IMG/VR virus record: IMGVR_UViG_3300025030_000078
Reading direction: 5' to 3' (one strand)
Length of the DNA: 20,000 nucleotides
Origin: an uncultured virus (IMG/VR IMGVR_UViG_3300025030_000078)
Taxonomy: Duplodnaviria > Heunggongvirae > Uroviricota > Caudoviricetes
Under the pieces are notes generated by a model. That model made no database searches. It worked only from the letters and a program-made list of their open reading frames with translations, and was not told the origin of the DNA. Positions 1-19,001 of this stretch are shown piece after piece; the first letter of the stretch is position 1; each line of letters begins with the position of its first letter. A program made the position numbers and the translations under genes.

Positions 1-1
1 G

Positions 2-538
2 CACAGACAGATTCTTGCGGGATTAGAAGCAAGCGACGCGGATTATGTTTTTTTATGCGAAAGCGATGTTTTATACCATCCCTCTCATTTTGAGTTTACT
101 TCTCCGCAGGATACAGCTTATTACTACAACATAAATGTATGGAAATATTGGTTTGAAGACGGTCTTTGTGTTTGGGTCGATGATATGAAACAAGTATCCG
201 GAATATGCGCTAATAAGAACCTGTTGTTACAACATTATAGAAAAAGAGTTGAAAGAATAGATAGAGAAGGAAAGTTTTCTATTGCTTGGGGTTACGAACC
301 CGGATCGAGAAAACCTCCTTTAGGGTTTGATGAATTTCCTAGATTCGAATATAAATCGACTGTTCCTAATGTTTGTATAAGGCACGGAGAAACTTTAACT
401 AAAAGTAAAAGATCTCCGGAAGAATTCCGCAATCCTAAATATGCCGAAGGATTCAAGACCGCCAGAGAAATTCCCGGATGGGGAAATATTAAGAGTATAT
501 TTGATAGGGAGGCAATTGATGGTTCAACGACAATCTAG
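2..538 (+). CDS. Glycosyltransferase-like protein (GT-A/GT2-like), 5'-truncated by the window
   Basis: The frame is open from base 2 (HRQILAGLEASDADYVFLCESDVLYHPSHFEF...) and joins the 185..538 ORF. The 'GLEA-x-x-ADYVFLCE-x-D' segment matches the strand and DxD-like (ExD) motif of GT-A fold transferases. Confidence 0.6.
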   Translation, partial: HRQILAGLEASDADYVFLCESDVLYHPSHFEFTSPQDTAYYYNINVWKYWFEDGLCVWVDDMKQVSGICANKNLLLQHYRKRVERIDREGKFSIAWGYEPGSRKPPLGFDEFPRFEYKSTVPNVCIRHGETLTKSKRSPEEFRNPKYAEGFKTAREIPGWGNIKSIFDREAIDGSTTI

Positions 539-615
539 GAATAATAACACAAATGTTTTTAATGTTTCTCATTGGAGAAAATTCGAAAATTTCCTAAGAA
601 AGGTGGATTAATAAT

Positions 616-2316
616 ATGCCTACACTAGTTGCTAGTTATGATGGCGATGGTGCAAGTAATACAACGTGGGCTTTAGCGGGTGGTTACAACACTATCGCTG
701 TTCAATCCTTCAAACCATCGGCATCAGGAAAACTCACATCGGCTAAGTTCTATTTGAAAAATGCCACAGCCGTTACAGGAACTTGCTATTTTGTCTTATA
801 TGCACATTCTGGAACGTACGGGACAAGTAGTGTTCCTACAGGTAGCGTTCTAGCAACATCCGCCGGTCTTGATGTCTCGACACTAAACTCTACCTTTGCA
901 CTAAAAGAGCTGACTTTCTCCGGTGCTAATCAGTACGATTTAGTTGCCAATACCGCTTATTGTATAGGTGTAACTTTTACAGGGGGTGATGGAGACCATT
1001 ATATACAGGTAGGGATTGATACCACCAATCCTTCTCACGAAGGTAATAGGGCGTCCTATATTTCATCGTGGACTGCCTATGCAAATGACCAAGCATTTTA
1101 TGTATACATAGAGGCATCATCACCGAGTGCTAGTGTTTCTCCCTCATCATCAGCTAGTCCGTCGTCTTCAATTTCCCCGTCTTCTTCGGAATCCCCATCG
1201 GTTTCGCCCTCGGCTTCTATCAGCCCGTCTTCGTCGGAAAGTCCTTCTGTCTCACCGTCAGCATCAGTAAGCCCATCGTCGTCAGTATCGCCATCTTTAA
1301 GTCCATCGGCTTCCGCTTCTCCGAGTTCTAGCGTTTCGCCTTCGGTTTCACCAAGTGCGTCTGTGTCACCTTCGGCTTCAGAGAGTCCGTCGGTATCACC
1401 TTCGGCGTCAATTAGTCCATCCGCTTCAGAGTCGCCTTCGGTATCCCCAAGTTCGTCAGTATCGCCGTCGGTCTCTCCTTCAGCTTCTATAAGTCCGTCG
1501 GCTTCGATCTCTCCATCAAGTTCGGAGTCTCCTTCGGTTTCTCCGTCAGCATCAGTATCGCCATCATCATCGGAGTCGCCAAGCATTTCCCCATCGTCTT
1601 CGGCATCTCCAAGTCCGGGAAGTCCTTCGGCGTCTATTTCTCCATCGGCATCGGTTTCGCCAAGCGCTTCAGAATCTCCATCGGTTAGTCCTTCGGCTTC
1701 CGTAAGTCCTTCAGCTAGTGAGAGTTTGTCACAATCTCCGTCGGCATCTATAAGCCCTTCGGCTTCAGAGTCTCCGTCGGTTTCGCCATCCGCTTCGGTA
1801 AGTCCGTCGAGTTCCGGGTCTCCTTCAATTTCCCCATCCGCTTCAGTTTCTCCGAGCGCTTCGGTAAGCCCGTCGTTTTCAGAATCTCCGTCGGTATCCC
1901 CGTCGGCATCCATGTCGCCTTCTTCGTCAGCATCGCTCTCAACGAGTCCTAGCGCGTCGATTTCTCCTTCAGCTTCGGAAAGTCCTTCAATTTCACCTTC
2001 GGCTTCTGTTTCACCTTCAGCATCCGGATCACCATCGGTTTCACCAAGTAGTTCTCTTTCAGCGTCACCGTCACCTTCGTCGAGCGAAAGTCCTTCATTA
2101 TCTCCGTCATCCTCGCCAAGCCCGTCGTCCTCGGTTTCCCCTTCTATCAGCCCATCATCTTCGGCTAGCCCTTCTCCCACGGAATGGGAATACAAATACA
2201 CAACAAGAAATACTGTTTATAGTGGTTATAAGTATTCAACGCGCGGAACTTCATATAGTGACAAATACTCAAATAGAAGCTCTTCTTATCAGGATAAATA
2301 TCGTTTTAGATCTTGA
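616..2316 (+). CDS. Putative virion surface/decoration protein: ~165-aa beta-rich N-terminal domain, ~354-aa Ser/Pro repeat stalk, Tyr-rich C-terminal repeats
   Basis: 566-aa ORF with SD-like AAGGTGGA upstream. The N-terminus is beta-strand rich (QSFKPSASGKLTSAKFYLK...YCIGV). It lies at the head of the structural gene run. Confidence 0.7.
   Translation: MPTLVASYDGDGASNTTWALAGGYNTIAVQSFKPSASGKLTSAKFYLKNATAVTGTCYFVLYAHSGTYGTSSVPTGSVLATSAGLDVSTLNSTFALKELTFSGANQYDLVANTAYCIGVTFTGGDGDHYIQVGIDTTNPSHEGNRASYISSWTAYANDQAFYVYIEASSPSASVSPSSSASPSSSISPSSSESPSVSPSASISPSSSESPSVSPSASVSPSSSVSPSLSPSASASPSSSVSPSVSPSASVSPSASESPSVSPSASISPSASESPSVSPSSSVSPSVSPSASISPSASISPSSSESPSVSPSASVSPSSSESPSISPSSSASPSPGSPSASISPSASVSPSASESPSVSPSASVSPSASESLSQSPSASISPSASESPSVSPSASVSPSSSGSPSISPSASVSPSASVSPSFSESPSVSPSASMSPSSSASLSTSPSASISPSASESPSISPSASVSPSASGSPSVSPSSSLSASPSPSSSESPSLSPSSSPSPSSSVSPSISPSSSASPSPTEWEYKYTTRNTVYSGYKYSTRGTSYSDKYSNRSSSYQDKYRFRS
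1117..2178 (+). repeat. Degenerate coding tandem repeat of SPS[A/S]S[V/I/E/A] hexapeptides and SPS[V/I] tetrapeptides
   Basis: Visible directly in the translation. Codons are synonymously diversified, so there is no perfect DNA repeat. Confidence 0.95.
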
Positions 2317-2319
2317 AAG

Positions 2320-2328
2320 TGTTAGAAT
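2320..2328 (+). promoter_or_regulatory. Extended -10 promoter (TG-T-TAGAAT), 6 nt before ATG 2335 (leaderless-type)
   Basis: TG at 2320-21, TAGAAT at 2323-28, AAAAAT spacer, then ATG. No SD sequence is present. Confidence 0.55.
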
Positions 2329-2334
2329 AAAAAT

Positions 2335-3795
2335 ATGAAAAGTTTTCTTATTCAAAGTTTTACCGGACTTTCTGATTTTGAGGACAAAGGCGCGAGAGGA
2401 GCTTTTAAATTCGGAAGTGGTTTGGATGTTAGACGAAACAGAGATTCTTTAAAGGCGGGGCAAGCATTAGCAAACGATTTAGCGTTGGGCGGTATTATGA
2501 ACTCTCCGGTTGTCGATGTAGTGAACTCTTCCGATGGAAATTCTTATTGGGGACTTGAAAACGGAAGAATTTTACAAAGAACTAGCGCAGGAGTTTGGAG
2601 TTTAAAATATACAGATGTTGAAGGAGATTTAAGAGGTATCGGAGAATGGGGAAACGACAACGGAGAAACAGGAATTTATTGGGCGACTCCTACAAAAATA
2701 CATAGAAAACCAATTCCCGGAAATGCAAATTGGACAGATGTTGATACAAGTGCCGGAAACCCTGCACAAACATATCCTAAAACTAATCTTACGAACACAC
2801 CTAACCATTTAATGAAAGTTATAAATGGCGGGTTTTATATAAACAACGGAGACGCTGTAGCGCTTATTGGTTATGATGAGTCTTACACCAATTTAGCTCT
2901 CCAACTTTTGCCGGATAATCTAGCCGAAGTATTATTGGACGACGGGATTTATGCAATTATAGGAGCCAGTCTTGGATCAGATAAGGAAGAATGTTGGCTT
3001 TATTCTTGGGATGGAATTTCCCTTAATTATAACGATAGAACTCCTCTCCCGTTTAAAGATATTAACGCAATAATAAAAGGAGAAGTAATTGTTGTTCAAT
3101 TCGGAAGCGATGGGCAATTATTCTTTGTAGGGGATTCTGGAAGGATCCCAATTACAGCTTTCCCCGGAGGAGGTCAAGTAGAACCGGCAGGAGTAGATGT
3201 TGATGGTGGACTTATTTTATTTGGAGTTTATGGTAATGACGTTTCTCGACAATCCGGAGTTTATGCTTATGGCAGAAATAAAAAGAACGCGGATTTTGTT
3301 CTGAATTTAGAATATCCTTTAGTTTGTGATTCTATAGATGCTGTAAGAAAAGTAGGATCTGATAAACTTATTGCTTATAAATCCGGATCACAGTATGGGG
3401 TCAAGAAGGTTGATACAGCAAACAAAATATCACAAGCTATTTACGAAACTATAGATTTAAAACTTCCTACAGAATACGGGAAGTTGCCTACCATATCTAG
3501 TATTGTTGTGGATATGGCTCCGCTACCGGCAGGGTGTTCTATAGAAATATGGCGAAGACTTGATAAAAAAGAAACTGAAGCCGGTACTGATTACGCCGGA
3601 GTTGCTACCGGTTTAAATGACGGTTGGCATCAATGTAGTTTGCAGGACGGATCCGGTTCTTTTACCGATGATGGGAAAACGGAAGCTATATTTAATTCGG
3701 AGGATAGTGGAAAAATCCTAGAGATCCGTGCTGTTTTAAATTGTTCTGGTAATAACAGCCCTGAAATCTTTAAGATCCAACCCTATTTTAGTTGA
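2335..3795 (+). CDS. Phage structural protein, probably a beta-propeller tail nozzle/stabilisation protein (P22 gp10/T7 gp12-like role)
   Basis: 486 aa, beta-rich with W/Y/G-containing blade-like segments. The N-terminus (FTGLSD...GLDVR) and the gene position are typical of podovirus tail genes. Function is inferred. Confidence 0.5.
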   Translation: MKSFLIQSFTGLSDFEDKGARGAFKFGSGLDVRRNRDSLKAGQALANDLALGGIMNSPVVDVVNSSDGNSYWGLENGRILQRTSAGVWSLKYTDVEGDLRGIGEWGNDNGETGIYWATPTKIHRKPIPGNANWTDVDTSAGNPAQTYPKTNLTNTPNHLMKVINGGFYINNGDAVALIGYDESYTNLALQLLPDNLAEVLLDDGIYAIIGASLGSDKEECWLYSWDGISLNYNDRTPLPFKDINAIIKGEVIVVQFGSDGQLFFVGDSGRIPITAFPGGGQVEPAGVDVDGGLILFGVYGNDVSRQSGVYAYGRNKKNADFVLNLEYPLVCDSIDAVRKVGSDKLIAYKSGSQYGVKKVDTANKISQAIYETIDLKLPTEYGKLPTISSIVVDMAPLPAGCSIEIWRRLDKKETEAGTDYAGVATGLNDGWHQCSLQDGSGSFTDDGKTEAIFNSEDSGKILEIRAVLNCSGNNSPEIFKIQPYFS

Positions 3796-4286
3796 TGGAT
3801 CAAGACAAGGTTTATTATCCGGAAATTATAGAAACATACGCTTTGCCCGAAACTGTAGTGGAGGAAGAAACGTCCTCTACTAATTATGTTGGTAAAACCA
3901 ATCTTGTTCCAACTACACAAGTAGACAAGAAATTTCCTCCTAGAAACTTCGCAAGAGAAACTATAAGTGAGACGTTAAACACTCGAACAAAGAAGATTTT
4001 GGGGGAATTTACTTTCGGTCAAGTAGGTGCTATCGCAATCGGGGTATATGAAAACGGGGTGTCCGGAGATATTCGTATCACGCCTAACGGCATTACAGCT
4101 AGAAATATAAATGGGGAAACTACTTTTTCTATAGACGGAACAACAGGAGATGCTGTCTTTAAGGGAACAATAACCGCAGGTGCTTTAGTCACGGGAAGTG
4201 TCGTAGTACAAGGACAAGGGGCATTTGTAGTTAATGATGGAACTTATAACGTAATCCGCATGGGTTACTTTGCAGGAGGTTTGTAA
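3795..4286 (+). CDS. Putative tail protein
   Basis: ATG at 3795 overlaps the previous TGA (TGATG). The segment 'DIRITPNGITARN..GETTFSIDGTTGDAVFKGTITAG' resembles phage tail beta-repeat regions. Confidence 0.55.
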   Translation: MDQDKVYYPEIIETYALPETVVEEETSSTNYVGKTNLVPTTQVDKKFPPRNFARETISETLNTRTKKILGEFTFGQVGAIAIGVYENGVSGDIRITPNGITARNINGETTFSIDGTTGDAVFKGTITAGALVTGSVVVQGQGAFVVNDGTYNVIRMGYFAGGL

Positions 4287-4618
4287 TGCCAGCCGAATAC
4301 GGTTTAAAAATAAGACTAGACAATGTTGCTGATGATGTGGAGGATTGTACGCCAAAACAAACAGCCTTCAATTCTAAATACCCTTGTGCGAAGATTCTTC
4401 AAGATGGAAAGGTTAGTGCTTCTACCGGATTTATTGTGGAAGTAAGCTTAGATTCCGATGTATCTTTTCCTTTCCAGTTACTTTGTTTTCTATATGACGC
4501 TAGTACACAAGAATATGAACCTGCTCAAAATGTTTCTTTTGATAGTACAAAAATTTATCTACCGGCAACGGCAAAAATAGAAGGAAGCTTTTTCTATTAC
4601 TTTGTTTGTTACGCATAA
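4286..4618 (+). CDS. Small structural/tail protein (YGLKI...FNSKYP type)
   Basis: 110-aa ORF with TAATG coupling. Shares motifs with the next gene. Confidence 0.6.
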   Translation: MPAEYGLKIRLDNVADDVEDCTPKQTAFNSKYPCAKILQDGKVSASTGFIVEVSLDSDVSFPFQLLCFLYDASTQEYEPAQNVSFDSTKIYLPATAKIEGSFFYYFVCYA

Positions 4619-4619
4619 T

Positions 4620-5039
4620 ATGGGAAATTACGGCGCTAAGATAGCAAAGAAAAAACATAATGTAGAAGATGGGGATCGTTACCAGATCTTCAATTCTAAA
4701 TATCCGGCGCTAAAATTAAAAGTATCCGGACAGGGTACGGGATCGCAGGTGGCAGGTAATGGAGGATTTACCATAACAATATCGCATAATTTGGGTTATG
4801 TTCCCCTATGTTTTGTAGATGGTCAGTACTTTAATCTTCCGGCGGAAGCCGTCGTTACCAAGTTCTCTAAGTGGAACAGATTTATATATCAAGGACTACA
4901 GGTTGGGGATTCTTATTACTACTACGCTGATACCACAAATTTATATATAGTGGCTTCTCTTTCCTATTTAACAGATGTTTACACTTTCGATCTTGATTAT
5001 ATGTATCATATTTATTATGACGAGGATACTTTAGCATGA
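4620..5039 (+). CDS. Small structural/tail protein, paralogue of 4286..4618
   Basis: Likely start is ATG 4620, just after the stop at 4618. Contains YGAKI...FNSKYPALK and 'TISHNLGYVP', a motif typical of phage tail accessory proteins. Confidence 0.6.
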   Translation: MGNYGAKIAKKKHNVEDGDRYQIFNSKYPALKLKVSGQGTGSQVAGNGGFTITISHNLGYVPLCFVDGQYFNLPAEAVVTKFSKWNRFIYQGLQVGDSYYYYADTTNLYIVASLSYLTDVYTFDLDYMYHIYYDEDTLA

Positions 5040-6301
5040 GTGTATTTACAAAAAGAGTAGACGCAGATATAAGGGATATAAACCATGTTTACGATGGAAC
5101 TTGGTCTGTTTGGGAAAATTCCGCTTATAACATAGGAAACCCCGGAGCAGTAATTAGGAATACTAGCTTACGTTTTATAGGTGTAAATATACCAAAAGAT
5201 TCAATTATAAATTCAGCTAAAATATCTTTTACATACGGTAGCACAGAGTCTATTACCGGAATGAAGATCTTGATAAAAGGTGTTGCGGAAGATAACACGG
5301 GGGAGTTTGTATCTTCTCCGGAAGATACCGCAAGAACAAGAACAAAAACAACGGCTAGTGTTGTCTGGGAAGGAACTATCTCTTACTCTGGAGGTGTCGC
5401 TTATGATACACCGGACATAAAAACAATAATTCAAGAAATAGTAAACAGATCCGGGTGGGTTTCGGGAAACGCTTTAGCCATTTATTTATATGACAATGGC
5501 AGTAGTTACGGAAAATATATCAGCATGGATGAGTATAGCGATGGTTTAGGAGATTCTGCTTTATTAACAGTAGATTATACTCCAGCAGGATCCCCAAGTA
5601 GTTCGGTATCCCCATCGGTATCTCCTTCTAGTTCAGCTTCTCCATCATCAAGTTTGAGTCCTTCGTCTTCGGTTTCCGCAAGTTCTACGCCAAGTGCTTC
5701 TCCATCACCTAGTTCCTCTATGAGTCCAAGTGCTTCGGTATCGCCTTCGAGTTCTAATTCTCCATCAATTTCGGCTTCAGTATCACCGAGTAGTAGTTCT
5801 TCTCCGTCTCTTTCTCCTTCGGCTTCCGCCTCACCTTCTCCGGTTTATTATGGAATTATGGTCAAAAAACAAAGCGTTAATAAAAATGTTGAGGATATTA
5901 CGGATCCTAAAGAGTTGGTTTTTACATCATCTTTAGGTGTTTTAGGACTTCGTTTACTTGATACAATCGAAGGAACTACGGACGCTAATGGGGAGATAAA
6001 TACAACCAAAAATCATAGTATTGGTTATCCTCCTATAACCATAGTGAAAGCAACAGCCTATGACGGGAATATTGTACTAGCGCCTATAACTTGGCGTTCT
6101 TACTATACAGACGTAGTGCATGGGGATTTGGAGGTTGTGGAAACTTTTAACTTCAAAGTGGACGGGACTAAAATTAGAATGTTAGTAACTGCTTACGAAT
6201 CCGACAACATTCAAGATGGGTACTTTGCTTATTTGGTGGGCAGAACCTATACTTTTAATATCTATTACTACTTTAACGAAATTGTGGAGACGCAATTTTA
6301 G
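5036..6301 (+). CDS. Putative tail appendage protein: N-terminal globular domain (DNRLRE/carbohydrate-binding-like), 84-aa Ser/Pro stalk, C-terminal YGI...HSIGYPP domain
   Basis: 421 aa with ATGA coupling. The N-terminal segment 'LRFIGVNIPKDSIINSAKISF...TPDIKTIIQEIVNRSGWVSGNALAI' resembles surface-protein domains. The C-terminal domain resembles the two preceding genes. Confidence 0.6.
   Translation: MSVFTKRVDADIRDINHVYDGTWSVWENSAYNIGNPGAVIRNTSLRFIGVNIPKDSIINSAKISFTYGSTESITGMKILIKGVAEDNTGEFVSSPEDTARTRTKTTASVVWEGTISYSGGVAYDTPDIKTIIQEIVNRSGWVSGNALAIYLYDNGSSYGKYISMDEYSDGLGDSALLTVDYTPAGSPSSSVSPSVSPSSSASPSSSLSPSSSVSASSTPSASPSPSSSMSPSASVSPSSSNSPSISASVSPSSSSSPSLSPSASASPSPVYYGIMVKKQSVNKNVEDITDPKELVFTSSLGVLGLRLLDTIEGTTDANGEINTTKNHSIGYPPITIVKATAYDGNIVLAPITWRSYYTDVVHGDLEVVETFNFKVDGTKIRMLVTAYESDNIQDGYFAYLVGRTYTFNIYYYFNEIVETQF
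5591..5842 (+). repeat. Second SPSxSx coding repeat
   Basis: Same repeat pattern as 1117-2178, seen in the translation. Confidence 0.9.
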
Positions 6302-6351
6302 TATGCTGTACAATTAAGGGGAAAGTGTAATAATAATTGTATAGGAAACTT

Positions 6352-6570
6352 ATGTCAAACGAGGATCAAAAGAAAAAAGATATCAAAAGATTTGAAAAAG
6401 AATTAGAAGAATTGAAGGAAAAGTATAAACTGGATCCTGTAGCGACACTAGAGTTTCCGCAGTATAGAGTCCTTCCGGACGATGTGCTTTTGGCGTTGAA
6501 GATAATAGAAAAGCATCAGTATAAAATTATGCTTTCTTATAAGGAAAAACAAAATGCAAACCAGATCTGA
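6352..6570 (+). CDS. Hypothetical small protein
   Basis: The likely start is ATG 6352 (MSNEDQ...), preceded by AGGA. It overlaps the next gene. Confidence 0.6.
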   Translation: MSNEDQKKKDIKRFEKELEELKEKYKLDPVATLEFPQYRVLPDDVLLALKIIEKHQYKIMLSYKEKQNANQI

Positions 6571-7279
6571 AATGGAAATAGAATTACAAGCGCAACTTCA
6601 GGCGGCTAACAACTCCTCCTTATTTCCTGCATCTCGATTAACTTCCCTTATACAAAATGCTTATAAAAGTGCCACTACCCTTTTTAAATGGTTGGCTCTT
6701 GCGAGGGCAAAAACAACCAGTACTACAGCAAAAGGTGTTAATGATGATATTTGTTATTACGATTATCCCGATGAATTTAGAACTAACACAATCTTCAGAG
6801 TTCAAATAGATGGGAAAGAATACAACAGAAAAAGTTTTGAATCCCTTTTAGATTATAGAAATAGATACCCAACCGGAAACGCTAAAAGAATTTTTGCAAA
6901 TTATCAACGCTTTGTTTTTATATCTCCGGATACATCAGTAGGATCAAACAATATGGATATTTGGGGAATTATACAGGCTCCGGAACTATCCTCCGGATCT
7001 TCAGAAACCATATTCTCCGGAAATTCAGACGATGCAAACATGGCAGTTATAGGGTTAGCGATGGCTATTGCCCTAAAGAAGATTGATCCCAAATTAGCAG
7101 AGAAAGAAAAACAAGACGCACTTCTAACTTTAGGTAAACTAAACTCCGATGAGTGGGCGGAATACGCAAGGGATCAGCAATTAGATACTCCTTTATTTGA
7201 AGTACCGGACTTTTTTGGTACTCCGAATATAAATACGCAGATAGGTCAATTTGATTACGATCCAACGGAGCATTACTAA
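6554..7279 (+). CDS. Putative head-tail adaptor (T7 gp11/P22 gp4-like role)
   Basis: 241 aa. A helical N-terminus (LTSLIQNAY...FKWLAL), 'YDYPDEFR', a central beta domain and a helical end give the typical layout of podovirus adaptors. Confidence 0.5.
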   Translation: MQTRSEMEIELQAQLQAANNSSLFPASRLTSLIQNAYKSATTLFKWLALARAKTTSTTAKGVNDDICYYDYPDEFRTNTIFRVQIDGKEYNRKSFESLLDYRNRYPTGNAKRIFANYQRFVFISPDTSVGSNNMDIWGIIQAPELSSGSSETIFSGNSDDANMAVIGLAMAIALKKIDPKLAEKEKQDALLTLGKLNSDEWAEYARDQQLDTPLFEVPDFFGTPNINTQIGQFDYDPTEHY

Positions 7280-7280
7280 T

Positions 7281-8408
7281 ATGGCAAGTATTAAAGATTT
7301 AAGATCAAAACCATTAAGTTCGATGTCCTATGAGGAACTATCCGATTTCATTAGTAAGGCTGAATCAGCCGGATATTCTCGTTCAGAATCTAAAGAATTA
7401 GGAAAAGCCGAGGATCTAAGAAAGACTTTGAAGCCGGAGAAGTACGGATCTGAAACTGTAGACGCCGCTAAGAAAAAACTTCTTACAAGTACAACTCCGG
7501 AGACACAGCAAAAACTAGGGCTTAGTGCAGGAAACGGCAGTTCTTCAGGACTTGGTACAGGATTTTCAGGATCCGGATCCGCAGGAGTGGATCTAAATAA
7601 AATATACGAGACTGCTTTAAACGACCCCGAACTAAAGGCTTTAGAAAAACAACTCGCCGAAAGACAGACTGCAAGAGATACGGCGGAAGCCGATATAAAC
7701 GACAATCCTTATTACACAGAAGCTACTCGTGTAGGCAAAATAGCTAAACTAGATGAAAAGGCAAACGATGAAATAAATACTCTAAAGAGTCAGATAGACT
7801 CTAAGAAGGCAGACGCGCAAGTAAAGGTTAATATAGCCACCCAACAATATAATATCGACAGTAACGAGTACCAAAAGAATCTTTCTAAACTAAATCTTCT
7901 TATAAGTTCCGGAGCAATAATCGGGGCTTCTTCTTCGGATATTGCTCAAATAGCAGTTGCAACAGGTATGAGTACTGAAATGGTTAAGAGCATTATAGAC
8001 ACAACAAAACAAGGTCAAATACAAACAAGTGTAACCACGAATACAGATGACAATGGAAATGTTACCGTATCAGTAATAAACACAAAGACCGGAGAAGTTG
8101 TTGCCCAAAATTCATTGGGGGCTATCGGTAACAAACAAACTTCCGGAACAGGTAATAATTACAAAGTAGGATCCGAATACTACACACAGGCGGCAAGGTT
8201 AATGACACAAGATCTTTCCTCTGTAGCAGGACAAGATAAATATGTAAGTCCTGTAGATTTTAGAACTTTTAGATCTCAATGGGTATCAGCAGGATTTAAT
8301 CCTTCCGACTTTGATAAAACCTTTGCCGGATTTATAAATCCATCACACGCCCAAGATTACATATATGATGCCGGTAAAGGCGGAACAGTAATCAATTTAG
8401 GAGATTAA
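7281..8408 (+). CDS. Putative internal virion/DNA ejection protein
   Basis: Likely start is ATG 7281. Has coiled-coil, G/S-rich and A/Q-rich segments and lies directly before the giant protein. Confidence 0.5.
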   Translation: MASIKDLRSKPLSSMSYEELSDFISKAESAGYSRSESKELGKAEDLRKTLKPEKYGSETVDAAKKKLLTSTTPETQQKLGLSAGNGSSSGLGTGFSGSGSAGVDLNKIYETALNDPELKALEKQLAERQTARDTAEADINDNPYYTEATRVGKIAKLDEKANDEINTLKSQIDSKKADAQVKVNIATQQYNIDSNEYQKNLSKLNLLISSGAIIGASSSDIAQIAVATGMSTEMVKSIIDTTKQGQIQTSVTTNTDDNGNVTVSVINTKTGEVVAQNSLGAIGNKQTSGTGNNYKVGSEYYTQAARLMTQDLSSVAGQDKYVSPVDFRTFRSQWVSAGFNPSDFDKTFAGFINPSHAQDYIYDAGKGGTVINLGD

Positions 8409-8410
8409 CA

Positions 8411-11400
8411 ATGGGAGTCTTTTCAGAATCCTTCCTACAAAACAACAAGCCAAATGTAAGTGGTGGGCAGAACAATCAACCACAAACTCCTGTTTCTACG
8501 GGGGCTTTCGCCAAACAATTCGGCGTTGATGAAGGACTGCAATACAAAGCACCACAGCCAGTTGCTCCAATAACTACGCCCGAAACAGCACAACCACAAG
8601 AAGAGGTAGGGGTTTTAAAGAAAATACAAGACTTCGTTAATAATCTCGTCACTACAGCCAAACCAAGATTTAAAGAGGGAATGGAGGACGCAGGTCTTCT
8701 TGGAGGTATCGTTAATGTGATTTCTCCTTATAAGAGTAAAGAGGACAGAGAACGCTTTCAACAAAACATGAGAACATATACGGAGATGCCGAAAGGCGAA
8801 GAGATCTTAACTGAAATAGTTATGAATGTTGCCGCCAACAAGTTTGAGCAATTCGCGGCGGCAGGAGCAGGTATATCAGGAATTATTGATTCAAGAAGTT
8901 TAACTAAGTTTGATAAAGAACTTCTGCAAAGAAACGGCTATCTTGATGAGCAGGGGAATATAAAAAAAGGTAAGGTCGCTATTGAAACTGGAAAGAGTGT
9001 TTTAGATTTATCCATATTCTTCCCACAACTATATGTAGGACTAGAGGGTTTGGGAGTCCTTGCAACAGGAGGAAAAAGTTTAACTATAGCCGGAAAGACT
9101 GTTTCTCTTGGTAGAGTAGTGACGGGAACTATAGTAGGAGGAACTTATAATACTCTATACACCCCAAAACTAGAGAACATTTTAACCGATCCTGAAGTCG
9201 TAGGAGACGCGGGGAAAGAGTTTTTGATCGGAGCCGGTGTAGGAACCCTTATTTCACTTCCGGTTGAATTTATACGCGCCCCACGCGCTCCAAAGATACT
9301 TACACAAGTAGAGCAGACCGAATTAAAGGAACTGTACCTTGCTTTAGCCAAACAATATCACCCCGATTCCTTAATAAACGGAAGTGACGAGGCTTTCAAG
9401 AATGTCGTTCAACACTATGACGCCGGAGATATAGAGTGGTTAAGGAAATTAAACCAAGCTACACCCGAACAAGCCGAGTCTATTTTGAAAACTGTTCTAC
9501 CAAACAAGGACAAATTCGGAGGTTTATTAACAGAGAAAGCCGGAGTTGTTGCACCAGTACAGCCAGAGCAGACAGCAAGCACTTCGACAAACATAGTGCC
9601 AACGGAGAAACTAGGAAAACCCACACAAGTATATAGAGGAACTACAGTAGCCGGAGAAACTTTAAACACAACCAAAGTAAACGGATTAACACGCGGAGAA
9701 TCTACTTCTACAGACCTTGCGGTAGCCGAAAGATTTGCTGAAAAGAAGGGCGGAGAAATACAATCTTTTACTATTAGCCCCGAAGCTACAGTCATAAATC
9801 ATTCTTATTTAGAAGATCTAGTAAAGAATGTTAAAAGCCCTAAAGAACAATTTAATATCGTAGATAAGTTTATAACCGATAATAAGATAGATGTTGTTCG
9901 TTTCGATGTTCCGGAAGGATCTTTAGGAGAAGCAGAACTTAGGGTACTAAATCCCGATGTAGTAACCAAGTCAGAAATAATACCTACTACTACAGCCAAA
10001 ATATCTAAAAGTGAAGAAGCAATGCGAGATATTTATAAGCAGAATAAGGACGTCGTAGAACAGGCTCTAGGGGAAGTTTGGACCGAAATGGATATAGCAG
10101 AAGCCGGAAGGCGTATTACTTTTGAACAACCGGATACTTCCGAAAGAGGTGTTATAGGAATTAAATCTTCTTTTCCTTCTTGGGTCCCGGAAGATTTGAG
10201 AAGCAGAAAACTATTTGATGCTGTTATGGAAGGACTAACAGATATAGATAATATAAAATATCCTGCTAAAAATATGGTCGCAAGACGAGAATTATTTGAT
10301 GCAATCTTAGATGAAGTAGATCGTAGAGCCGGTGTTGATACTTCAAAATTGAGAAGTGATATACTTAGATTGTATGAAAAACCAACCGCAAAAACCCCAG
10401 TCACAGAAACTAAAAGACCTGTTCGTGAAAGCCCTACAGGAAGCAAAGAACCTGTTAGAAAGCCCCAAGAAGTCGAAAGAGAACGCCCCGAACATATCCA
10501 AAGGGGAATAGAAAAGTCAAAGAAACTAACTGAAAAAGAAGTATTGGCGAAAGCCAAACAATCTTTGAAGGCATACATAGATAGAAATCCTACACTTGAA
10601 AGATTCAAAAACGATGTAAGTAATGGAGGTCAAACTTTCGGAGACTTTGAAGGAGATCTTAATTACAACAAGGGAAATGTTTCTATCGAACTTGCAAACG
10701 GTAGAAAATTCAAATTCACAGCACAAGAAATATACGGAAGTAAACCGGCAGTAGTTAGAGAGAAAGTTACTGTATCAGCAAGAAAAACCATAAAAGAATC
10801 TGAAGTAAAAGGATTTAATCCTAAAAATTTAGAAGACCCCGTATCTCCGGAAGCCACAAAAGAAGCCGATAAAATAATAAAAAGAAGCGAAATAGCGAAA
10901 GAGTTAAGCGAAAAATTAGGTGTTCCTATCAGACAAGGAAAGTTTAGAACACCAAATGCGCTTGGTATTTATAAGACAAGGGCAAAGGTAGTTAGAATAA
11001 AGTCCGGGGGATTGCAGACAATCTTCCATGAAGTAGGTCATTTCTTGGACGATAAATTCACGTTCTCTAAAAATATCTCTATTAGTGAAAGAAAGGCATT
11101 GATGGCAGAGTATGGAAACGCTTACGCAAATCAACCAAAGAGACAACAAGAAGAAGCCTTCGCAGAATTTTTAAGATTTAGAATGACGGGACAAACAAAC
11201 AAAGTTAGTAAAATGGCTCCGTCTTTCTCGAAAGAATTCGAAAGTAGATTAGAAGAACTTCCCGAAATAAAAGACGTTATTGATACAGCAACAAGAGATT
11301 TCAAGCGATGGAATGAGCAACCGGCTACCGCCAAAGTTTTAAGTAATATCTCAACCGGAGCGCAGGAAAAAGATAATTTACTAAACAAAATAAATAATAC

Positions 11401-13957: not shown

Positions 13958-13973
13958 GTGTAGAATTTAATTG

Positions 13974-14132
13974 ATGAGTAAGTTAGAAAAAACTATAGGA
14001 AATATAATTGCAGTAGTATTGACGGTAGTCGTTATACTCTCAACTTTCTATGTTGTTTTTTCTCTCGTGTTCGGTAAAGGTTATGGGAAGGGGCTTTACG
14101 GAAACAGAGGGGACTCTTACCTAGTAGAATAA
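13974..14132 (+). CDS. Small single-TM membrane protein (52 aa, not in the ORF track)
   Basis: MSKLEKTIGNIIAVVLTVVVILSTFYVVFSLVFGKGYGKGLYGNRGDSYLVE* fills the intergenic gap. TAGAAT lies 7 nt upstream of the ATG. Confidence 0.6.
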   Translation: MSKLEKTIGNIIAVVLTVVVILSTFYVVFSLVFGKGYGKGLYGNRGDSYLVE

Positions 14133-14151
14133 AAAATGCTTTAATTAAACT

Positions 14152-14349
14152 ATGGAAGAATTCTTTACAGCGATATCAAACTTTGGATTTCCCGTAGTCG
14201 TAGCCGGGTATTTACTCTTCCGTATAGAAAGTAAGATGGAAAGATTCAGCGATACTATGCAAAGAAACACGGAATCAAACATAAACTTAGTAAATGCAAT
14301 TAATAAGCTATCGGACGAGGTTAGGGAAGGACTTAGGAATCGTAAATGA
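14152..14349 (+). CDS. YvrJ-family-like small membrane protein (holin-like position)
   Basis: 'ISNFGFPVVVAGYLLFRIESKM' matches the YvrJ-type signature, followed by a coiled coil. Confidence 0.65.
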   Translation: MEEFFTAISNFGFPVVVAGYLLFRIESKMERFSDTMQRNTESNINLVNAINKLSDEVREGLRNRK

Positions 14350-14717
14350 CAAGCGATCTATTAAAACAAGCAGTAATATATGTAACAAACGCTCCGTTTT
14401 TTTGGGGATCTATGGGGTTCACGGTGGCGATAGCCATGTTTTCAGGAGTATTACTTTACGATGGACATTTAAATCAAATAAAAAAAGGTTTTGTTTCCGT
14501 TGTTTCCTACGCTTCTATAATATTTTGGGTAACAATTTCCCGTGTCTTACAAACAACCAGTAATCCAGAATTTATGAATCAGACTGTACACCCGGAGTAT
14601 GCTTACGCCGGAGCAATATCTTTGATCTTTATTACTCTTTCATGGTTACTTGGTATTTTAATAGGCGTTCTGATCTTCAGATACAAATATAAGGGACGCC
14701 ATGTTGACCAATTTTAA
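14346..14717 (+). CDS. Membrane protein with 3 TM segments (holin candidate)
   Basis: Three hydrophobic stretches, a basic C-terminus and ATGA coupling. Confidence 0.6.
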   Translation: MTSDLLKQAVIYVTNAPFFWGSMGFTVAIAMFSGVLLYDGHLNQIKKGFVSVVSYASIIFWVTISRVLQTTSNPEFMNQTVHPEYAYAGAISLIFITLSWLLGILIGVLIFRYKYKGRHVDQF

Positions 14718-14720
14718 AAG

Positions 14721-14729
14721 TGCTATAAT
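14721..14729 (+). promoter_or_regulatory. Consensus extended -10 (TG-C-TATAAT), 6 nt before ATG 14736
   Basis: Perfect TGnTATAAT with no SD between it and the start codon. Confidence 0.65.
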
Positions 14730-14735
14730 AAATAT

Positions 14736-15038
14736 ATGAAGTTATTTGACCTTTTAGACTTAGAAACTATTTGGGAATCTTTAAAAACCCCTATCAGACA
14801 GGCTTTACTTGCAGGATATTCCTTCTTATTAAATCAGATATTTGTCTTCATTGCCGAGAAATTTGGCTTTGAATTTACTCCTGAACAAAAACTACAGTTA
14901 ATTTCTTACGGCACTCCTATCGCTTGGGCGATCATATCTTTTATTGATAAAGTACTGCATCAACTTGGAAAGAAGACAGGTAGTTTGAAACTTACCTACG
15001 GTCTTACTCCATACCTAGAGAAAATTAAACAAGCATGA
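14736..15038 (+). CDS. Membrane protein with about 2 TM segments (holin candidate)
   Basis: 100 aa with two hydrophobic segments, directly upstream of and coupled (ATGA) to the peptidase gene. Confidence 0.55.
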   Translation: MKLFDLLDLETIWESLKTPIRQALLAGYSFLLNQIFVFIAEKFGFEFTPEQKLQLISYGTPIAWAIISFIDKVLHQLGKKTGSLKLTYGLTPYLEKIKQA

Positions 15039-15946
15039 ATAAAATAAAACTTCCAACCATTTATTCCCAATGGGATAGTAAATGGGCAAATGAAATACTA
15101 GGCTTCAACGCCACTAATTCCGGCTTTAATATATATAATTACGGTTGCCTTATTACTTGTATCGCAATGGCTTTGGAATACTACGGTAAAAAGGAAACAC
15201 CAAGTGATATAAACGAAGATCTTAGAGATTCAAACGGTTTTGCTCCTGATAGTGGAAACTATGTTTGGGGATCCGCCCCTAAAATCTTCAAACAAATAAA
15301 AGAGGAAAAACACATTATAACTCCTTACCTATTAACAGACGAACAAATGCAAGAAATAAAAGGATCTTTAGATATTGGATATCCGGTAATGGTACAGCTT
15401 GATTCCAACCCTAAAACCGTAGCTTTAGATATGCACTTTGTCCTTCTTATTGGCTACAATCCTTCAGACGAAAATGACTTTTTAATCGCCGATCCTTTAG
15501 GCGGTATTGAACAAAGTTTGAAAAAATACTTAGGTTGGTTTAGACCAAGTGCTAGAAAAACCATTGAAAGTTACACCATACTAAAAGGTGATCTTCCTAT
15601 TACTGATGAATTAAAAGATAAGATCATAGACTTTGACGATCCGGAAGGAAAAAGAAGATCCGTACTATGGTATGTAAAATCATGGTTCGATCAAAAGATG
15701 GACAAACAAAATCAGAAAACCGAATACGAAGCGCAGTTAAAAAAGAAGGACGAACTATTCTTACAAAACGCCAATCTTTTAACCGCTTCCACGAAAGAGG
15801 TCGCTAGAAAAGAGACAAAGATCCAAGAAATGTCCGTTAAAATAACAACCTTAGAGAAGGAAAACGCTAGGTTAATAGATCAAAACGCATCATTATTTCA
15901 ATTCGTTGATCTAATAAAAATGGCTTTGAGTAAACTTAAATTGTAA
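15035..15946 (+). CDS. C39-like (papain-fold) cysteine peptidase with C-terminal coiled coil; putative endolysin
   Basis: Motifs YSQWDSKW, YGCLITCIAM (Cys), MHFVLL (His) and IADP (Asp). Follows the membrane-protein genes. Confidence 0.75.
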   Translation: MNKIKLPTIYSQWDSKWANEILGFNATNSGFNIYNYGCLITCIAMALEYYGKKETPSDINEDLRDSNGFAPDSGNYVWGSAPKIFKQIKEEKHIITPYLLTDEQMQEIKGSLDIGYPVMVQLDSNPKTVALDMHFVLLIGYNPSDENDFLIADPLGGIEQSLKKYLGWFRPSARKTIESYTILKGDLPITDELKDKIIDFDDPEGKRRSVLWYVKSWFDQKMDKQNQKTEYEAQLKKKDELFLQNANLLTASTKEVARKETKIQEMSVKITTLEKENARLIDQNASLFQFVDLIKMALSKLKL

Positions 15947-16292
15947 AATCGGATAAGGTTATTTCTCTAACTACTACTTCCCACATTTTTCTTTTACCGG
16001 TCTTGCCTTTCTTTCCCCAACCGTGAACATATATTTTTGCTCCCGCTTGTAGCCAGTATTTAGCTTCCGGAATTGCCAGTATTTTCTTTATTCTAGTTGA
16101 TGTGTTTCCGATAGAAGTTGTTTGTACGCCGAATATCTTTCCGTCAAAATGGCTGATAGCCACTATATCAATAAATCCGAATAGATCCACGCGTACCCTT
16201 CCGTAAGGATTCCATCTTTCAACCACTTGCGCGGTGTATTTTTGATCCCTTAAATACCTCAAAGATCTTTGAGCCGGTGTTATAGATCCCAT
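15936..16292 (-). CDS. PD-(D/E)XK-type endonuclease (Holliday junction resolvase/VRR-NUC-like)
   Basis: 'LRDQKY..QVVE...DLFGFIDIVAI...GVQTTS' fits the restriction-endonuclease fold, with Q-x-T in place of E-x-K. Confidence 0.65.
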   Translation of the reverse strand: MGSITPAQRSLRYLRDQKYTAQVVERWNPYGRVRVDLFGFIDIVAISHFDGKIFGVQTTSIGNTSTRIKKILAIPEAKYWLQAGAKIYVHGWGKKGKTGKRKMWEVVVREITLSDFTI

Positions 16293-17488
16293 AAATTCTC
16301 CTTCTTTTTAACTTCAAATTGGTATAGAGGTGTTCCGTGCCAAGATCCGGATTCAGACAACAGTTCCCATTTATCCCTCTTTTCTAAGCGTATGGTTTCG
16401 ATTCTACCGAGACTTTTAACAGTAGAGGTTAAATCTATCACCTTACACGCCTTCTTCCCCTCTGCGCGTCTCACACCGCGTCCCAGCATCTGATAATAAA
16501 GACCTATGGATCTTGTGGGTCTAAGCAAAACTATCGCGTCCAGTTCCGGAAAATCAAACCCAGTAGTCAAAACACCCACATTGAAGACGGTCTTTATCTT
16601 GCCATTCCTAAACGCTGAAATTACCCCGTCACGCGATTTTCTACTGCTTTTAGATGTAACTACCGCCGAACCCTCTACAAACGATTGTAGACGCTCTGCT
16701 TGGACTACAGAAGAGCAAAAAACAAGGACATGGGAAGCCAATTCTTCAGCTAAGAATACTGCTTCTAAGATCTTTTCCTCCTCTCCGGAGATTTTTTCTT
16801 CGAATTTTTCAAGGTCAAAATCGGATCCGGATTTGTTAGTTGGTATATCTTTGTGATCCAACAGGGATTTATCTATGTACTTTAAAGGTAAAAGATGCCC
16901 TTCTTTTATAAGTTCCTGATTGTTTATATTGTAAATAATACGATGCCAAAACCTTCCTTTCATTCTGTTTATTAGTTTAATTGCTGTATGTGCTATGAAG
17001 GTTCCGTAGGTAGTTCGTTCGTAGGAGACGTCCATTCGGTACGGTGTCGCGGTTAGACCTATTACTTTTGGATTTCCGATGGCTTCTAAGAATTGAGTAA
17101 ACATACCATCTAAATTCTTAGGATTTACTAAGTGGCACTCGTCTATGATTATGTATTTAAAGTGAACGAACTCTTCCGGCTTTTTGTAAATACTTTGTAT
17201 CGTTGCGAAAGTAAATTTAGAAATATCTTTTCTACCGGCGGAAGCCGAATATATTCCAATAAGTTCGTCCGGAACGTATGCCAACAGTTTTTCGTAGTTT
17301 TGTCGTAAAATTTCACGACTAGGTTGAAGAATAAGAATTGGTTGATTTAATCTAACGACAAGTTCTGCTATCACTAGAGATTTACCCGCACCGGTAGGGA
17401 GAACACAAATATCTGCTCCATTTAGCGATTGACTCCAAAGAAGTTTATCAACTGCCTCTTCCTGATACGATCTTAATTTATATTGCAT
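16280..17488 (-). CDS. SF2 DExH helicase (RadD/YejH/UvsW-like)
   Basis: Motifs LRSYQ (Q), PTGAGKS (I), DECH (II), TAT (III), LTTGFDFP (V) and QMLGRGVR (VI). Confidence 0.93.
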   Translation of the reverse strand: MQYKLRSYQEEAVDKLLWSQSLNGADICVLPTGAGKSLVIAELVVRLNQPILILQPSREILRQNYEKLLAYVPDELIGIYSASAGRKDISKFTFATIQSIYKKPEEFVHFKYIIIDECHLVNPKNLDGMFTQFLEAIGNPKVIGLTATPYRMDVSYERTTYGTFIAHTAIKLINRMKGRFWHRIIYNINNQELIKEGHLLPLKYIDKSLLDHKDIPTNKSGSDFDLEKFEEKISGEEEKILEAVFLAEELASHVLVFCSSVVQAERLQSFVEGSAVVTSKSSRKSRDGVISAFRNGKIKTVFNVGVLTTGFDFPELDAIVLLRPTRSIGLYYQMLGRGVRRAEGKKACKVIDLTSTVKSLGRIETIRLEKRDKWELLSESGSWHGTPLYQFEVKKKENLWDL

Positions 17489-17921
17489 GTTCTTTTCTTG
17501 CTTTCATATATGCTTTGTGGGCATCTTTTGGGTCAGAAAAGCTTCCTAAATAAATTCTTTTTTTATTTATAACTATCATTGAGTAGAAAGTATTTTTTGT
17601 CCTAAATACACCAATATATCCTGTTTTGTTCTTTCTTAAAAATCTTTTATTAAACGACTGCTCTCCGTAAGTTGCCCATCTAACATTACCCGGCTCGTAT
17701 CCTTTCGAATTATCAATTCTTTCTATCGTATGCTTTATTGTCGGAGGGTCACCTAGATATTCGTAAAACTTACTAAAAGAGTTTTTCCATTCTTCACAAA
17801 GAAAAATTCCCCTTCCCCCGTAGTTTTCATAACCAGTAGCTGAAACCTTAGACGTGCGTCTTTTTATTGTTTTCCATCTGGCATAAATAGCCGTTCCTGT
17901 TTTACCGTGAAATTCTTTCAT
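17478..17921 (-). CDS. HNH-type homing endonuclease with C-terminal AP2 domain
   Basis: 'YGGRGI..CEEW...TIERIDNSKGYEPGNVRWAT..EQ..N' followed by the AP2-like 'NKTGYIGV...RIYLGSF.....AHKAY'. Confidence 0.85.
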   Translation of the reverse strand: MKEFHGKTGTAIYARWKTIKRRTSKVSATGYENYGGRGIFLCEEWKNSFSKFYEYLGDPPTIKHTIERIDNSKGYEPGNVRWATYGEQSFNKRFLRKNKTGYIGVFRTKNTFYSMIVINKKRIYLGSFSDPKDAHKAYMKARKEHAI

Positions 17922-17927
17922 TTATCG

Positions 17928-17956
17928 ATATTAGTTCGTTGTTTCTTTTCTGTCAA
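17928..17956 (-). promoter_or_regulatory. Sigma70-type promoter TTGACA-N17-TAATAT, 6 nt before the HNH-AP2 ATG
   Basis: Minus strand reads TTGACA (17956-51), GAAAAGAAACAACGAAC, TAATAT (17933-28), CGATAA, ATG (17921). Confidence 0.75.
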
Positions 17957-18019
17957 ATGTTTCTTTACGGTATTTCCGGAACATCGGCTTTGTTCCAAAT
18001 CTTATATCCGTAAATTACA

Positions 18020-18178
18020 TTAATTCTTTTTAGTATGAAGTGTATAAACTTCCTTGTAAGTAGCCACATTGCCTTCTCTTAGATCCCTTTCCAAGCCGTT
18101 ATAGACATACAGAAAGAAAATTAAATACCCTATCAACAACAAAACCATCAAGAATATCAATGTTAATTGCGTCCTCAT
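18020..18178 (-). CDS. Small single-TM membrane protein (52 aa, not in the ORF track)
   Basis: MRTQLTLIFLMVLLLIGYLIFFLYVYNGLERDLREG...; its ATG overlaps the exonuclease stop (ATGA). Confidence 0.5.
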   Translation of the reverse strand: MRTQLTLIFLMVLLLIGYLIFFLYVYNGLERDLREGNVATYKEVYTLHTKKN

Positions 18179-18939
18179 TCTTTTTCTGCCTTAAACTTTT
18201 CCAACATCTCTAAATTATTAGACAAAACAAAAGCCGCTATGAAGGCTTCAAACATCTTTTTATACATTGCATCATCTTTTACAACTGCGAATTCAAAAGT
18301 CCCGTCTTTTCCAATTCTTACTATTAGTTGTCCAGAATATTTTTCCTCCGGAAACTCTTCGTTTCTAGCGTATCTATAAGCAGAAGTTTGTATAAACATT
18401 TCCGGATAAATACCGTTACTTGTCTTTAAATCCCCTATATACATTTTTCCGTCTATCGTACAGATAAAATCTGTTGTTCCGGAATACTCGTACTTCTTAG
18501 AAAATATAACCTGTTCTGCTTGTAAAAATTTAACATTATGTTTCTTAACCCAGATAAGAAATTTTAGAACCGATTCCTGTAATTCCGGATTTACCGGTGT
18601 TCCGGGATTTTCTCCCTTTATATATTTTTCTACCCATTTATGAAGGAAGGTTCCAAGATCTCCGGCGTCCTCTTTTTTCTGCCAATGTGCTTTTCTTGCT
18701 CCGGAGTACATTGCCGATAACTCTAATTCGTCGTAAGATTTCCCCGGCTCTATCTGTCCGGAAATATAATCTACAGCGCATCCGGAAGCCCAATTTATTA
18801 AAGCGGGTTTATTTATCACTTTCAGAATCGTAGTTACGGACTTGATCTCCTTGTTCTTTTCTACCCACATATATTTATGGCGAAAGCCGTCGAAGTTAAG
18901 GGTTACTGTTCCGTTATAAAGTTTGTTTTTTATCATCAT
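18175..18939 (-). CDS. PD-(D/E)XK exonuclease (Cas4-like/YqaJ/lambda-exo-like phage recombination nuclease)
   Basis: Motifs SVTTIL, GTFLHKWVE, EQVIFS, YSGTTD, DLKTS and QTSAY. ATG 18939 is preferred as start over GTG 18984. Confidence 0.85.
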   Translation of the reverse strand: MMIKNKLYNGTVTLNFDGFRHKYMWVEKNKEIKSVTTILKVINKPALINWASGCAVDYISGQIEPGKSYDELELSAMYSGARKAHWQKKEDAGDLGTFLHKWVEKYIKGENPGTPVNPELQESVLKFLIWVKKHNVKFLQAEQVIFSKKYEYSGTTDFICTIDGKMYIGDLKTSNGIYPEMFIQTSAYRYARNEEFPEEKYSGQLIVRIGKDGTFEFAVVKDDAMYKKMFEAFIAAFVLSNNLEMLEKFKAEKE

Positions 18940-19001
18940 CTCGATATTTTCTCCAAAAACCACCACCAAAGTTCCCGATGCCACTTATTTTCTATTCTCA
19001 T
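18936..19001 (-). CDS. 21-aa Trp-rich mini-ORF (MRIENKWHRELWWWFLEKISR)
   Basis: GAGGAG SD 6 nt upstream; its TGA overlaps the exonuclease ATG (ATGA). Confidence 0.4.
   Translation of the reverse strand: MRIENKWHRELWWWFLEKISR

Follow-up and report, generated by a model that had tools for sequence, protein, structure and literature searches.

The palindromic hexamer TCCGGA is strongly over-represented in a 20,000-nucleotide stretch of DNA (the window) from an uncultured virus of the Caudoviricetes, IMG/VR record IMGVR_UViG_3300025030_000078. The window has a GC content of 39.1% and contains 38 TCCGGA sites, dispersed over positions 197-18786 (the last one starting at 18781) and forming a subset of 113 CCGG tetramers, while its base composition predicts 2.7. 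This excess is probably a by-product of a composition bias that is centred on CCGG and acts on the DNA itself. Taken as a whole, the evidence favors a CCGG signature of the host type, resembling the outcome of repair or mutation and left unrestricted by the host, and not a palindrome comparable to HIP1, the highly iterated palindrome (HIP) of cyanobacteria, or a signal. The first-pass annotation of the window had counted about 35-37 sites by eye against roughly 3 expected, in good agreement with the numbers found here.

The DNA that was analyzed consisted of the window and the IMG/VR fragment L004, joined to 32.6 kb. L004 overlaps window positions 1-1031 with 100% identity and extends the phage 12.6 kb upstream. 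The terminase, portal and capsid genes are located on these added 12.6 kb, and the window is phage DNA. L004 contains 28 TCCGGA, 87 CCGG and no GGCC; since it shares the word signature of the window, the TCCGGA/CCGG property is genome-wide. In the joined sequence we found 64 TCCGGA (1.96 per kb) and 194 CCGG. The ratio of observed to expected counts (O/E, or O/E0 when the expectation is based on composition) was 14.4 for the hexamer.

CCGG as the over-represented unit

The excess of TCCGGA exceeds both chance and codon usage. By count the hexamer ranked third among all hexamers of the window, and a first-order Markov model predicted 4.7 sites. Shuffles and codon counts were performed with the 34 coding sequences (CDS) of the 32.6 kb, which contain 60 TCCGGA. 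Permutation of codons gave 10.6 ± 3.2 sites and none of 500 shuffles reached 60. Synonymous shuffling gave 19.7 ± 3.7 sites with a maximum of 32 in 500, and synonymous shuffling in which dinucleotides were kept gave 36.3 ± 3.8 with a maximum of 47 in 100. The latter procedure replaced a strict codon-pair-preserving shuffle, which retains every TCC-GGA by construction. The excess thus survived the Markov and codon-shuffle checks that the first-pass annotation had proposed, and the disappearance under shuffling that would have pointed to codon bias was not seen. The enrichment of CCGG and GGATCC noted earlier was also confirmed by counting: CCGG occurs 113 times in the window against 29 expected and GGATCC 15 times against 2.7. 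The GGATCC excess was weaker in the 34 CDS (20 against 8.5-8.9 expected under the shuffles, z about 4), and 13 of the 20 coding GGATCC read GGA-TCC (Gly-Ser).

The TCCGGA sites had been described as occurring in genes on both strands and in different reading frames. Both strands are indeed represented, but only two of the three frames are used. In the window 19 sites read TCC-GGA (Ser-Gly), 17 read xxT-CCG-GAx (X-Pro-Asp/Glu), none reads xTC-CGG-Axx, and two are intergenic; in the 34 CDS the corresponding coding numbers are 28, 32 and 0. The restriction to two coding frames follows from TCC-GGA and xxT-CCG-GAx being the sole synonymous routes to TCCGGA. A site in the third frame would need CGG (Arg), a codon with two occurrences in the window. 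The non-coding part of the phage DNA, 2,047 nt, contains four TCCGGA, corresponding to 1.95 per kb against 1.96 per kb overall, and this equal density indicates that the bias is not exerted at the level of translation.

The most over-represented tetramer is CCGG, with an O/E of 3.9-4.0. A maximal-order Markov model using the counts of TCCGG, CCGGA and CCGG predicted 37.1 TCCGGA in the window, where 38 were observed, which leaves no excess of the hexamer over its pentamers. The choice of T and A as flanks of CCGG is independent. In the 32.6 kb, 64 CCGG sites have both T before and A after the tetramer, 35 have T only, 64 have A only and 31 have neither, giving an odds ratio (OR) of 0.89; in the window alone the OR was 1.15. 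An iterated hexamer of the HIP1 type, as suggested by the first-pass annotation, was ruled out by the independent flanks together with the Markov prediction, the palindrome being no commoner than its sub-words predict. The flanks themselves showed a weaker effect: GGA was found after an NCC codon in 73% versus 45% (OR 3.4) and T before CCG followed by G in 62% versus 44% (OR 2.1). The two preferences, T upstream and A downstream of the tetramer, are weaker than the core bias and independent, and make TCCGGA its commonest flanked form.

Synonymous sites at which CCGG can be formed are strongly skewed. Of the 115 NCY codons followed by GG of a Gly codon, 101 (88%) ended with C, whereas 31% did so elsewhere (OR 16, p = 5e-34), and this preference was seen in all four families (Ser, Pro, Thr and Ala codons) at 72-100%. 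Similarly, Pro codons of the type CCR ended with G in 85 of 100 cases when followed by G, against 33% elsewhere (OR 11.5, p = 3e-17). Control contexts gave OR values of 0.9-2.4. When the four bases were compared at NCN followed by GG, T was found at 0.20x, C at 3.3x, A at 0.83x and G at 0.80x. Among the one-step neighbors of CCGG only the transition neighbor, CTGG/CCAG, was depleted (O/E 0.36), and transversion neighbors remained at 0.8-1.0. Selection against CTGG would raise A and G, and selection for CCGG would lower them; a directional T-to-C exchange therefore fits the data. The word skew of the phage is of the type produced by very-short-patch (VSP) repair, with CCGG up, its transition neighbor CTGG/CCAG down, and exchange between T and C only.

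Of the causes considered in the first-pass annotation, a repair-driven origin fits best, as the effect is T-to-C-specific at C-Y-G-G, shows up outside genes as well as in two coding frames, and survives the shuffles; the other causes it had proposed found no support. The underlying process may be a directional correction of the T:G-to-C:G type or a context-specific suppression of C-to-T change. Where the base in C-Y-G-G is free to be C or T (or G or A in C-C-R-G), about 85-88% of the positions in this genome carry C (or G), with C gained from T alone.

The CCGG bias in Bacteroidota and in other phages

Among the 21 tblastn matches to the large terminase subunit (TerL) in phage records, 17 bear the name of a Bacteroidota host and 4 bear no host name. 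Word statistics of this phylum were obtained from 44 genomes, sampled at 5.6-100 kb each (at most 20-100 kb per genome), with crude gene calls (open reading frames, ORFs, of at least 150 amino acids). TCCGGA density was determined in 401 Bacteroidota genomes and CCGG statistics in 40 genomes spaced by index, from each of which up to 20 kb was taken. The CCGG O/E0 was above 2 in 23 of the 40 genomes, with a maximum of 4.89, and CCGG was the top tetramer in 19; the CCGG word bias is thus present in the presumed host group. The enriched genomes displayed the same C preference at synonymous sites as the phage. Their non-coding DNA contained CCGG at 3.95x (141 against 35.7 in the 23 genomes), and the third frame, with C before CGG, was biased as well. 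In the four-base test they gave T at 0.27-0.35x, C at about 2x, and A and G at 0.92-0.99x. Seven of the 40 genomes were CCGG-poor, and in CCGG-poor genomes C dropped to 0.36x and A, G and T rose in proportion, as word avoidance predicts. The four-base synonymous test thus separates avoidance, where C is down and the three others rise proportionally, from a directional process, where only T and C are swapped. Matches to the repair endonuclease Vsr (PF03852) came from 11 of 44 genomes overall, 6 of them among the 23 with enriched CCGG; many of these are drafts, so that a missing match is no proof of absence. The T-to-C pattern was alike in genomes with and without a Vsr match. Canonical Vsr does not account for the CCGG bias.

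Since a T-to-C CCGG bias is common in Bacteroidota, the host phylum of the TerL relatives, we read the bias of the phage as a host-type signature. By replicating in a Bacteroidota-type host the phage would take on the mutation or mismatch-repair signature of that host, the bias thus coming from the host. The signature would persist because the host lacks restriction of CCGG or TCCGGA; GGCC, CCWGG and a large number of 6-bp palindromes, in contrast, have been purged. The whole word pattern points to Bacteroidota, and weakly to a Kaistella/Chryseobacterium-like composition.

The eighty TerL relatives from IMG/VR that were compared show how variable the bias is. At 70-100% TerL identity the CCGG O/E spans from zero to about 4.8x, and identical fragments have the same word signature. 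A relative with 83% TerL identity (L011) has TCCGGA at 4.4x and CCGG at 2.7x, with a third of the phage's density, and one with 70% identity (L014) has no CCGG at all. Sixteen other relatives lack it too; in total CCGG was absent from 18 loci, and CTGG/CCAG was raised (1.3-2.6x) in 16 of these. Several relatives have CCGG at 1.5-3x yet no TCCGGA, and CCGG and CWGG vary inversely in the set. Such a swing in CCGG among closely related phages suggests that the defense and repair environments of hosts rewrite synonymous sites of phages fast. In eight prophage loci from Bacteroidales-type records (L108, L114, L116, L119, L123, L124, L130 and L134) CCGG was zero or nearly so, and CCWGG was present at 3.4-5.7x.

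High TCCGGA densities also occur in unrelated IMG/VR viral contigs, which reach 1.8-2.8 per kb among the matches listed in a pattern scan; more such contigs exist. One unrelated viral contig with 1.9 TCCGGA per kb has at its end four tandem 81-base units with three TCCGGA each (L280:23-325), and encodes a distant PF01555-like methyltransferase segment. Megablast of the window and tblastn of the portal protein against phages returned no match, and related-locus searches with ORF 616-2316 and with the helicase returned self fragments or distant matches only. A further candidate locus (L003, G003) proved unrelated, with a GC content of 53%.

Several observations weigh against a host-type origin of the excess. 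The TCCGGA density in the 401 Bacteroidota genomes, typically about 0.3-0.7 per kb as estimated by eye, had a maximum of 1.41 per kb, below the 1.96 per kb of the phage. The O/E0 of 14.4 for the hexamer compares with a maximum of 8.5 in the 40 samples. The flank fractions of CCGG in the phage were 0.51 for T and 0.66 for A against 0.24-0.47 in the most similar genomes, in which TCCGGA was enriched only 1.7-4.2x. The phage thus surpasses the sampled genomes in flank preference and in hexamer excess, which implies a more specific influence on the T/A flanks. The tetranucleotide correlation with the best genomes was only 0.52-0.60, the highest values (0.58-0.60) being those of a Kaistella genome and prophage locus, and the label host-type refers to the phylum only. 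Unlike in the phage, CTGG/CCAG was often not depleted overall in the bacterial samples (O/E0 up to 1.7-1.9). Vsr was matched in just the 6 of 23 enriched genomes mentioned above. Finally, at the positions of phage CCGG sites the 83% and 70% TerL relatives carry diverse words, with CAGG the commonest, and not mainly CTGG/CCAG; in this comparison, at 72% nucleotide identity, synonymous sites are saturated, so that it gives no direction of change.

One tentative reading is that many Bacteroidota and their phages are subject to a hitherto undescribed, Vsr-independent, context-specific correction of C-T-G-G to C-C-G-G, which in the host of this phage might extend to T-CCGG-A flanks. A T:G-to-C:G repair or a methyl-directed equivalent would then saturate free sites with CCGG, and the flank-extended specificity would give a HIP-like hexamer density above that of any of the 401 genomes. 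Searches of the open-access literature turned up no paper on an excess of CCGG or TCCGGA in Bacteroidota or in phages of this phylum, which is not proof that it is unpublished, and nothing relevant on TCCGGA methylomes. If no known enzyme explains the CCGG bias, it offers a testable starting point for finding a bias of repair or mutation in a major phylum that depends on sequence context.

Alternative explanations

The main rival to a host-type signature is a methyltransferase-coupled process of the HIP type, in which a host or phage methyltransferase reads CCGG or TCCGGA and methyl-directed or very-short-patch repair completes near-miss sites. We regard this as rather unlikely. Passages of Elhai 2015 (PMC4390886) tie over-represented palindromes to cognate methyltransferases and propose biased repair, and the depletion of CTGG/CCAG alone, with its T-to-C-specific exchange, is what a T:G-to-C:G correction predicts. 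The additional bias of the T/A flanks could likewise be the work of a site-specific enzyme. The independence of the flanks (OR 0.89) is not what a hexamer-specific enzyme would be expected to produce. Among the most phage-like genomes, one (G080; CCGG 3.5x, GGCC 0.15, CWGG 0.24) has a Vsr match, but most enriched genomes do not, and the T-to-C pattern is the same in those. The phage does encode a DNA methyltransferase (PF01555), located at 19142-19945 on the minus strand and the only one in the 32.6 kb. Its motif IV, D-I-P-Y, is of the N6-adenine type, so the enzyme cannot make 5-methylcytosine (m5C); the best of its relatives with a solved structure, 5hek, methylates adenine as well. A tblastn search with this protein against all collected loci detected no close orthologue; partial matches of at most 54% identity came from loci with and without CCGG, and no correlation can be drawn from them. 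A scan of the phage ORFs (32.6 kb, with some kilobases of the genome missing; ORFs of at least 70 amino acids, or at least 80 in the window) revealed neither Vsr nor an m5C methyltransferase. No link to methylation, as considered in the first-pass annotation, which had recommended a search for a methyltransferase and Vsr, emerged from these results, the only DNA methyltransferase seen being of the N6-adenine type.

The excess of CCGG could also be a side effect of restriction avoidance, if targets containing CTGG/CCAG were removed and the freed synonymous sites became CCGG. The phage is under strong restriction avoidance. GGCC and CCWGG are absent from the 32.6 kb, where about 48 GGCC are expected from composition and about 29 per CCWGG word by hand estimate; 24 of the 64 palindromic hexamers are missing against 1.5 expected; and ACGT (0.27x) and CATG (0.34x) are strongly depleted. 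The earlier premise that phages avoid palindromes holds here. With so many palindromic hexamers absent, TCCGGA (14.4x), GGATCC (5.2x) and AGATCT (2.5x) appear as tolerated exceptions, and TCCGGA is not depleted, whereas GGCC, CCWGG and the missing hexamers behave as avoided words. The flanks of GATC are skewed as well: of the 157 sites in the 32.6 kb, 87 read RGATCY and only 8 read YGATCR, with TGATCA occurring once and CGATCG not at all.

An avoidance origin of the CCGG excess would agree with the low CTGG/CCAG level (O/E 0.36) and with the inverse relation of CCGG and CWGG among the relatives. Two prophage-like loci on genome contigs with a GC content of about 55% (L151 and L170) almost wholly avoid CTGG/CCAG (O/E 0.01-0.02) and have CCGG at 2.4-2.6x. 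We know of no 4-base CTGG restriction target. However, removal of CTGG should raise A, C and G alike at NCN followed by GG, and only C increased (3.3x) while A and G stayed at about 0.8x. The four-base test can detect avoidance, as the proportional pattern was seen in CCGG-avoiding genomes. Furthermore, 54 CTGG/CCAG are left in the phage, unlike truly purged words, and TCT and ACT before GG, which do not form CCWGG, are replaced too. Restriction avoidance is thus an improbable cause of the CCGG excess.

It is still less probable that the TCCGGA sites were selected as binding, packaging, recombination or replication signals, some of which the first-pass annotation had suggested. The word is palindromic and dense, its T/A flank preference exceeds that of the sampled genomes, and in the scan statistic up to 8 sites fell within 810 bp (P = 0.035) and up to 4 within 100 bp (P = 0.054), values that precede correction for the several window sizes tried. 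Local clustering is thus marginal. Overall the spacing is that of a Poisson process, with a coefficient of variation (CV) of the gaps of 1.00 and a variance/mean of 1.16 per 2 kb, and clustering or periodicity of the sites was rejected on this basis. There is no hexamer synergy. Aligned CCGG sites were conserved in the 83% TerL relative in 10 of 28 cases, no better than any 4-mer (29% for all 4-mers). The sites are also dispensable, as the 70% relative lacks CCGG and the 83% relative has a third of the density, and unrelated phages show the same TCCGGA excess. Finally, codon-pair selection for TCC-GGA and CCG-GAx during translation, to which all 60 coding sites (Ser-Gly or X-Pro-Asp/Glu) and the 19 TCC-GGA among the 50 Ser-Gly pairs of the window (4.0 expected by codon usage) could be ascribed, is the least probable explanation, and the results from non-coding DNA and across frames go most of the way to refuting it: a single tetramer is favored in two frames, in all four NCY families and in Pro codons before any codon starting with G, TCCGGA is as dense in non-coding as in coding DNA, and in Bacteroidota both non-coding DNA and the third frame are biased.

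Neighboring genes and comparison with known systems

The genes of the window include a 1,848-amino-acid LPD38 polyvalent protein, a C39-like peptidase, a helicase, an HNH endonuclease, an exonuclease and the PF01555 methyltransferase. Seven TCCGGA, as reported earlier, lie in the exonuclease gene (phrog_298; 18175-18984, minus strand), at 18347, 18401, 18478, 18584, 18700, 18757 and 18781. The group of four described within about 6925-7021 was found at 6925, 6979, 6992 and 7016 in ORF 6554-7279 on the plus strand, its clustering being marginal. The two intergenic sites are located at 6474-6479, between ORFs 5036-6301 and 6554-7279, and at 17975-17980, between the HNH and exonuclease genes. The fused forms of GGATCC that had been noticed are present as well: GGATCCGGATCC at 7569-7580 on the plus strand, reading GGA-TCC-GGA-TCC for Gly-Ser-Gly-Ser in ORF 7251-8408, and GGATCCGGA at 16823. 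TCCGGA sites of this phage should not be annotated as a HIP1-like element or signal, and for host prediction the whole pattern should be used, i.e. CCGG at about 4x with T/A flanks, absence of GGCC and CCWGG, and tolerance of GATC.

The HNH endonuclease gene (phrog_374; 17478-17921, minus strand) is situated between the helicase and exonuclease genes and may encode a homing endonuclease. Directly downstream of the capsid genes, two family-2 glycosyltransferase genes and two Methyltransf_24 genes (L004:1217-4325, minus strand) could form a module for modifying the virion or glycans. In the 70% TerL relative an exonuclease homologue (L014:2580-3347) precedes the terminase genes (L014:8842-12506) by about 5.5 kb. 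This layout suggests a circularly permuted phage genome with a length of roughly 37-39 kb. Under that reading the 32.6 kb covers most of the genome, and a 78.8-kb contig, the longest listed for the methyltransferase cluster, may be a dimer.

A word skew attributed to very-short-patch repair has reportedly been described for E. coli by Bhagwat and McClelland and by Merkl et al., both in 1992, with Dcm (CCWGG) and Vsr as the enzymes involved. The phage resembles this system in that a target word is up and its T-containing transition neighbor is down, at synonymous sites and independent of frame. It differs in that the target is CCGG instead of CCWGG, in that Vsr was unmatched in 17 of the 23 CCGG-enriched genomes and in the scanned phage ORFs, and in that CTGG/CCAG is not depleted overall in many of the sampled bacteria.

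Restriction-site avoidance in phages is the subject of Rusinov et al. 2018 (PMC6286503). The absence of GGCC, CCWGG and 24 of 64 palindromic hexamers conforms to such avoidance, and the phage carries the CCGG bias of the host phylum of its relatives, in line with phage-host similarity of oligonucleotide signatures (amelioration). The TCCGGA feature itself is unlike avoidance, being an enrichment that at the hexamer level is above every sampled genome.

For cyanobacteria, passages of Elhai 2015 (PMC4390886) and Xu et al. 2018 (PMC5861425) describe HIP1 (GCGATCGC) and further HIPs, namely GGCGCC, GCsGC and rCCGGy, the last of which is over-represented in one Oscillatoria strain according to the former paper (PMC4390886). 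With HIP1 the phage word shares a short palindromic form, an occurrence in genes on both strands, a count far above composition (14x) and above codon-preserving nulls, and a plausible repair-type origin; the CCGG core is also that of the rCCGGy case reported by Elhai (PMC4390886). In the phage, unlike in HIP1, the palindrome is not the unit, as the flanks are independent and a maximal-order Markov model explains the count. The 14x excess over composition falls below the 15-300x quoted for HIP1. Moreover, the phage sites are without periodicity, extra conservation or a cognate methyltransferase seen in the scanned sequence, and the underlying tetramer bias is phylum-wide.

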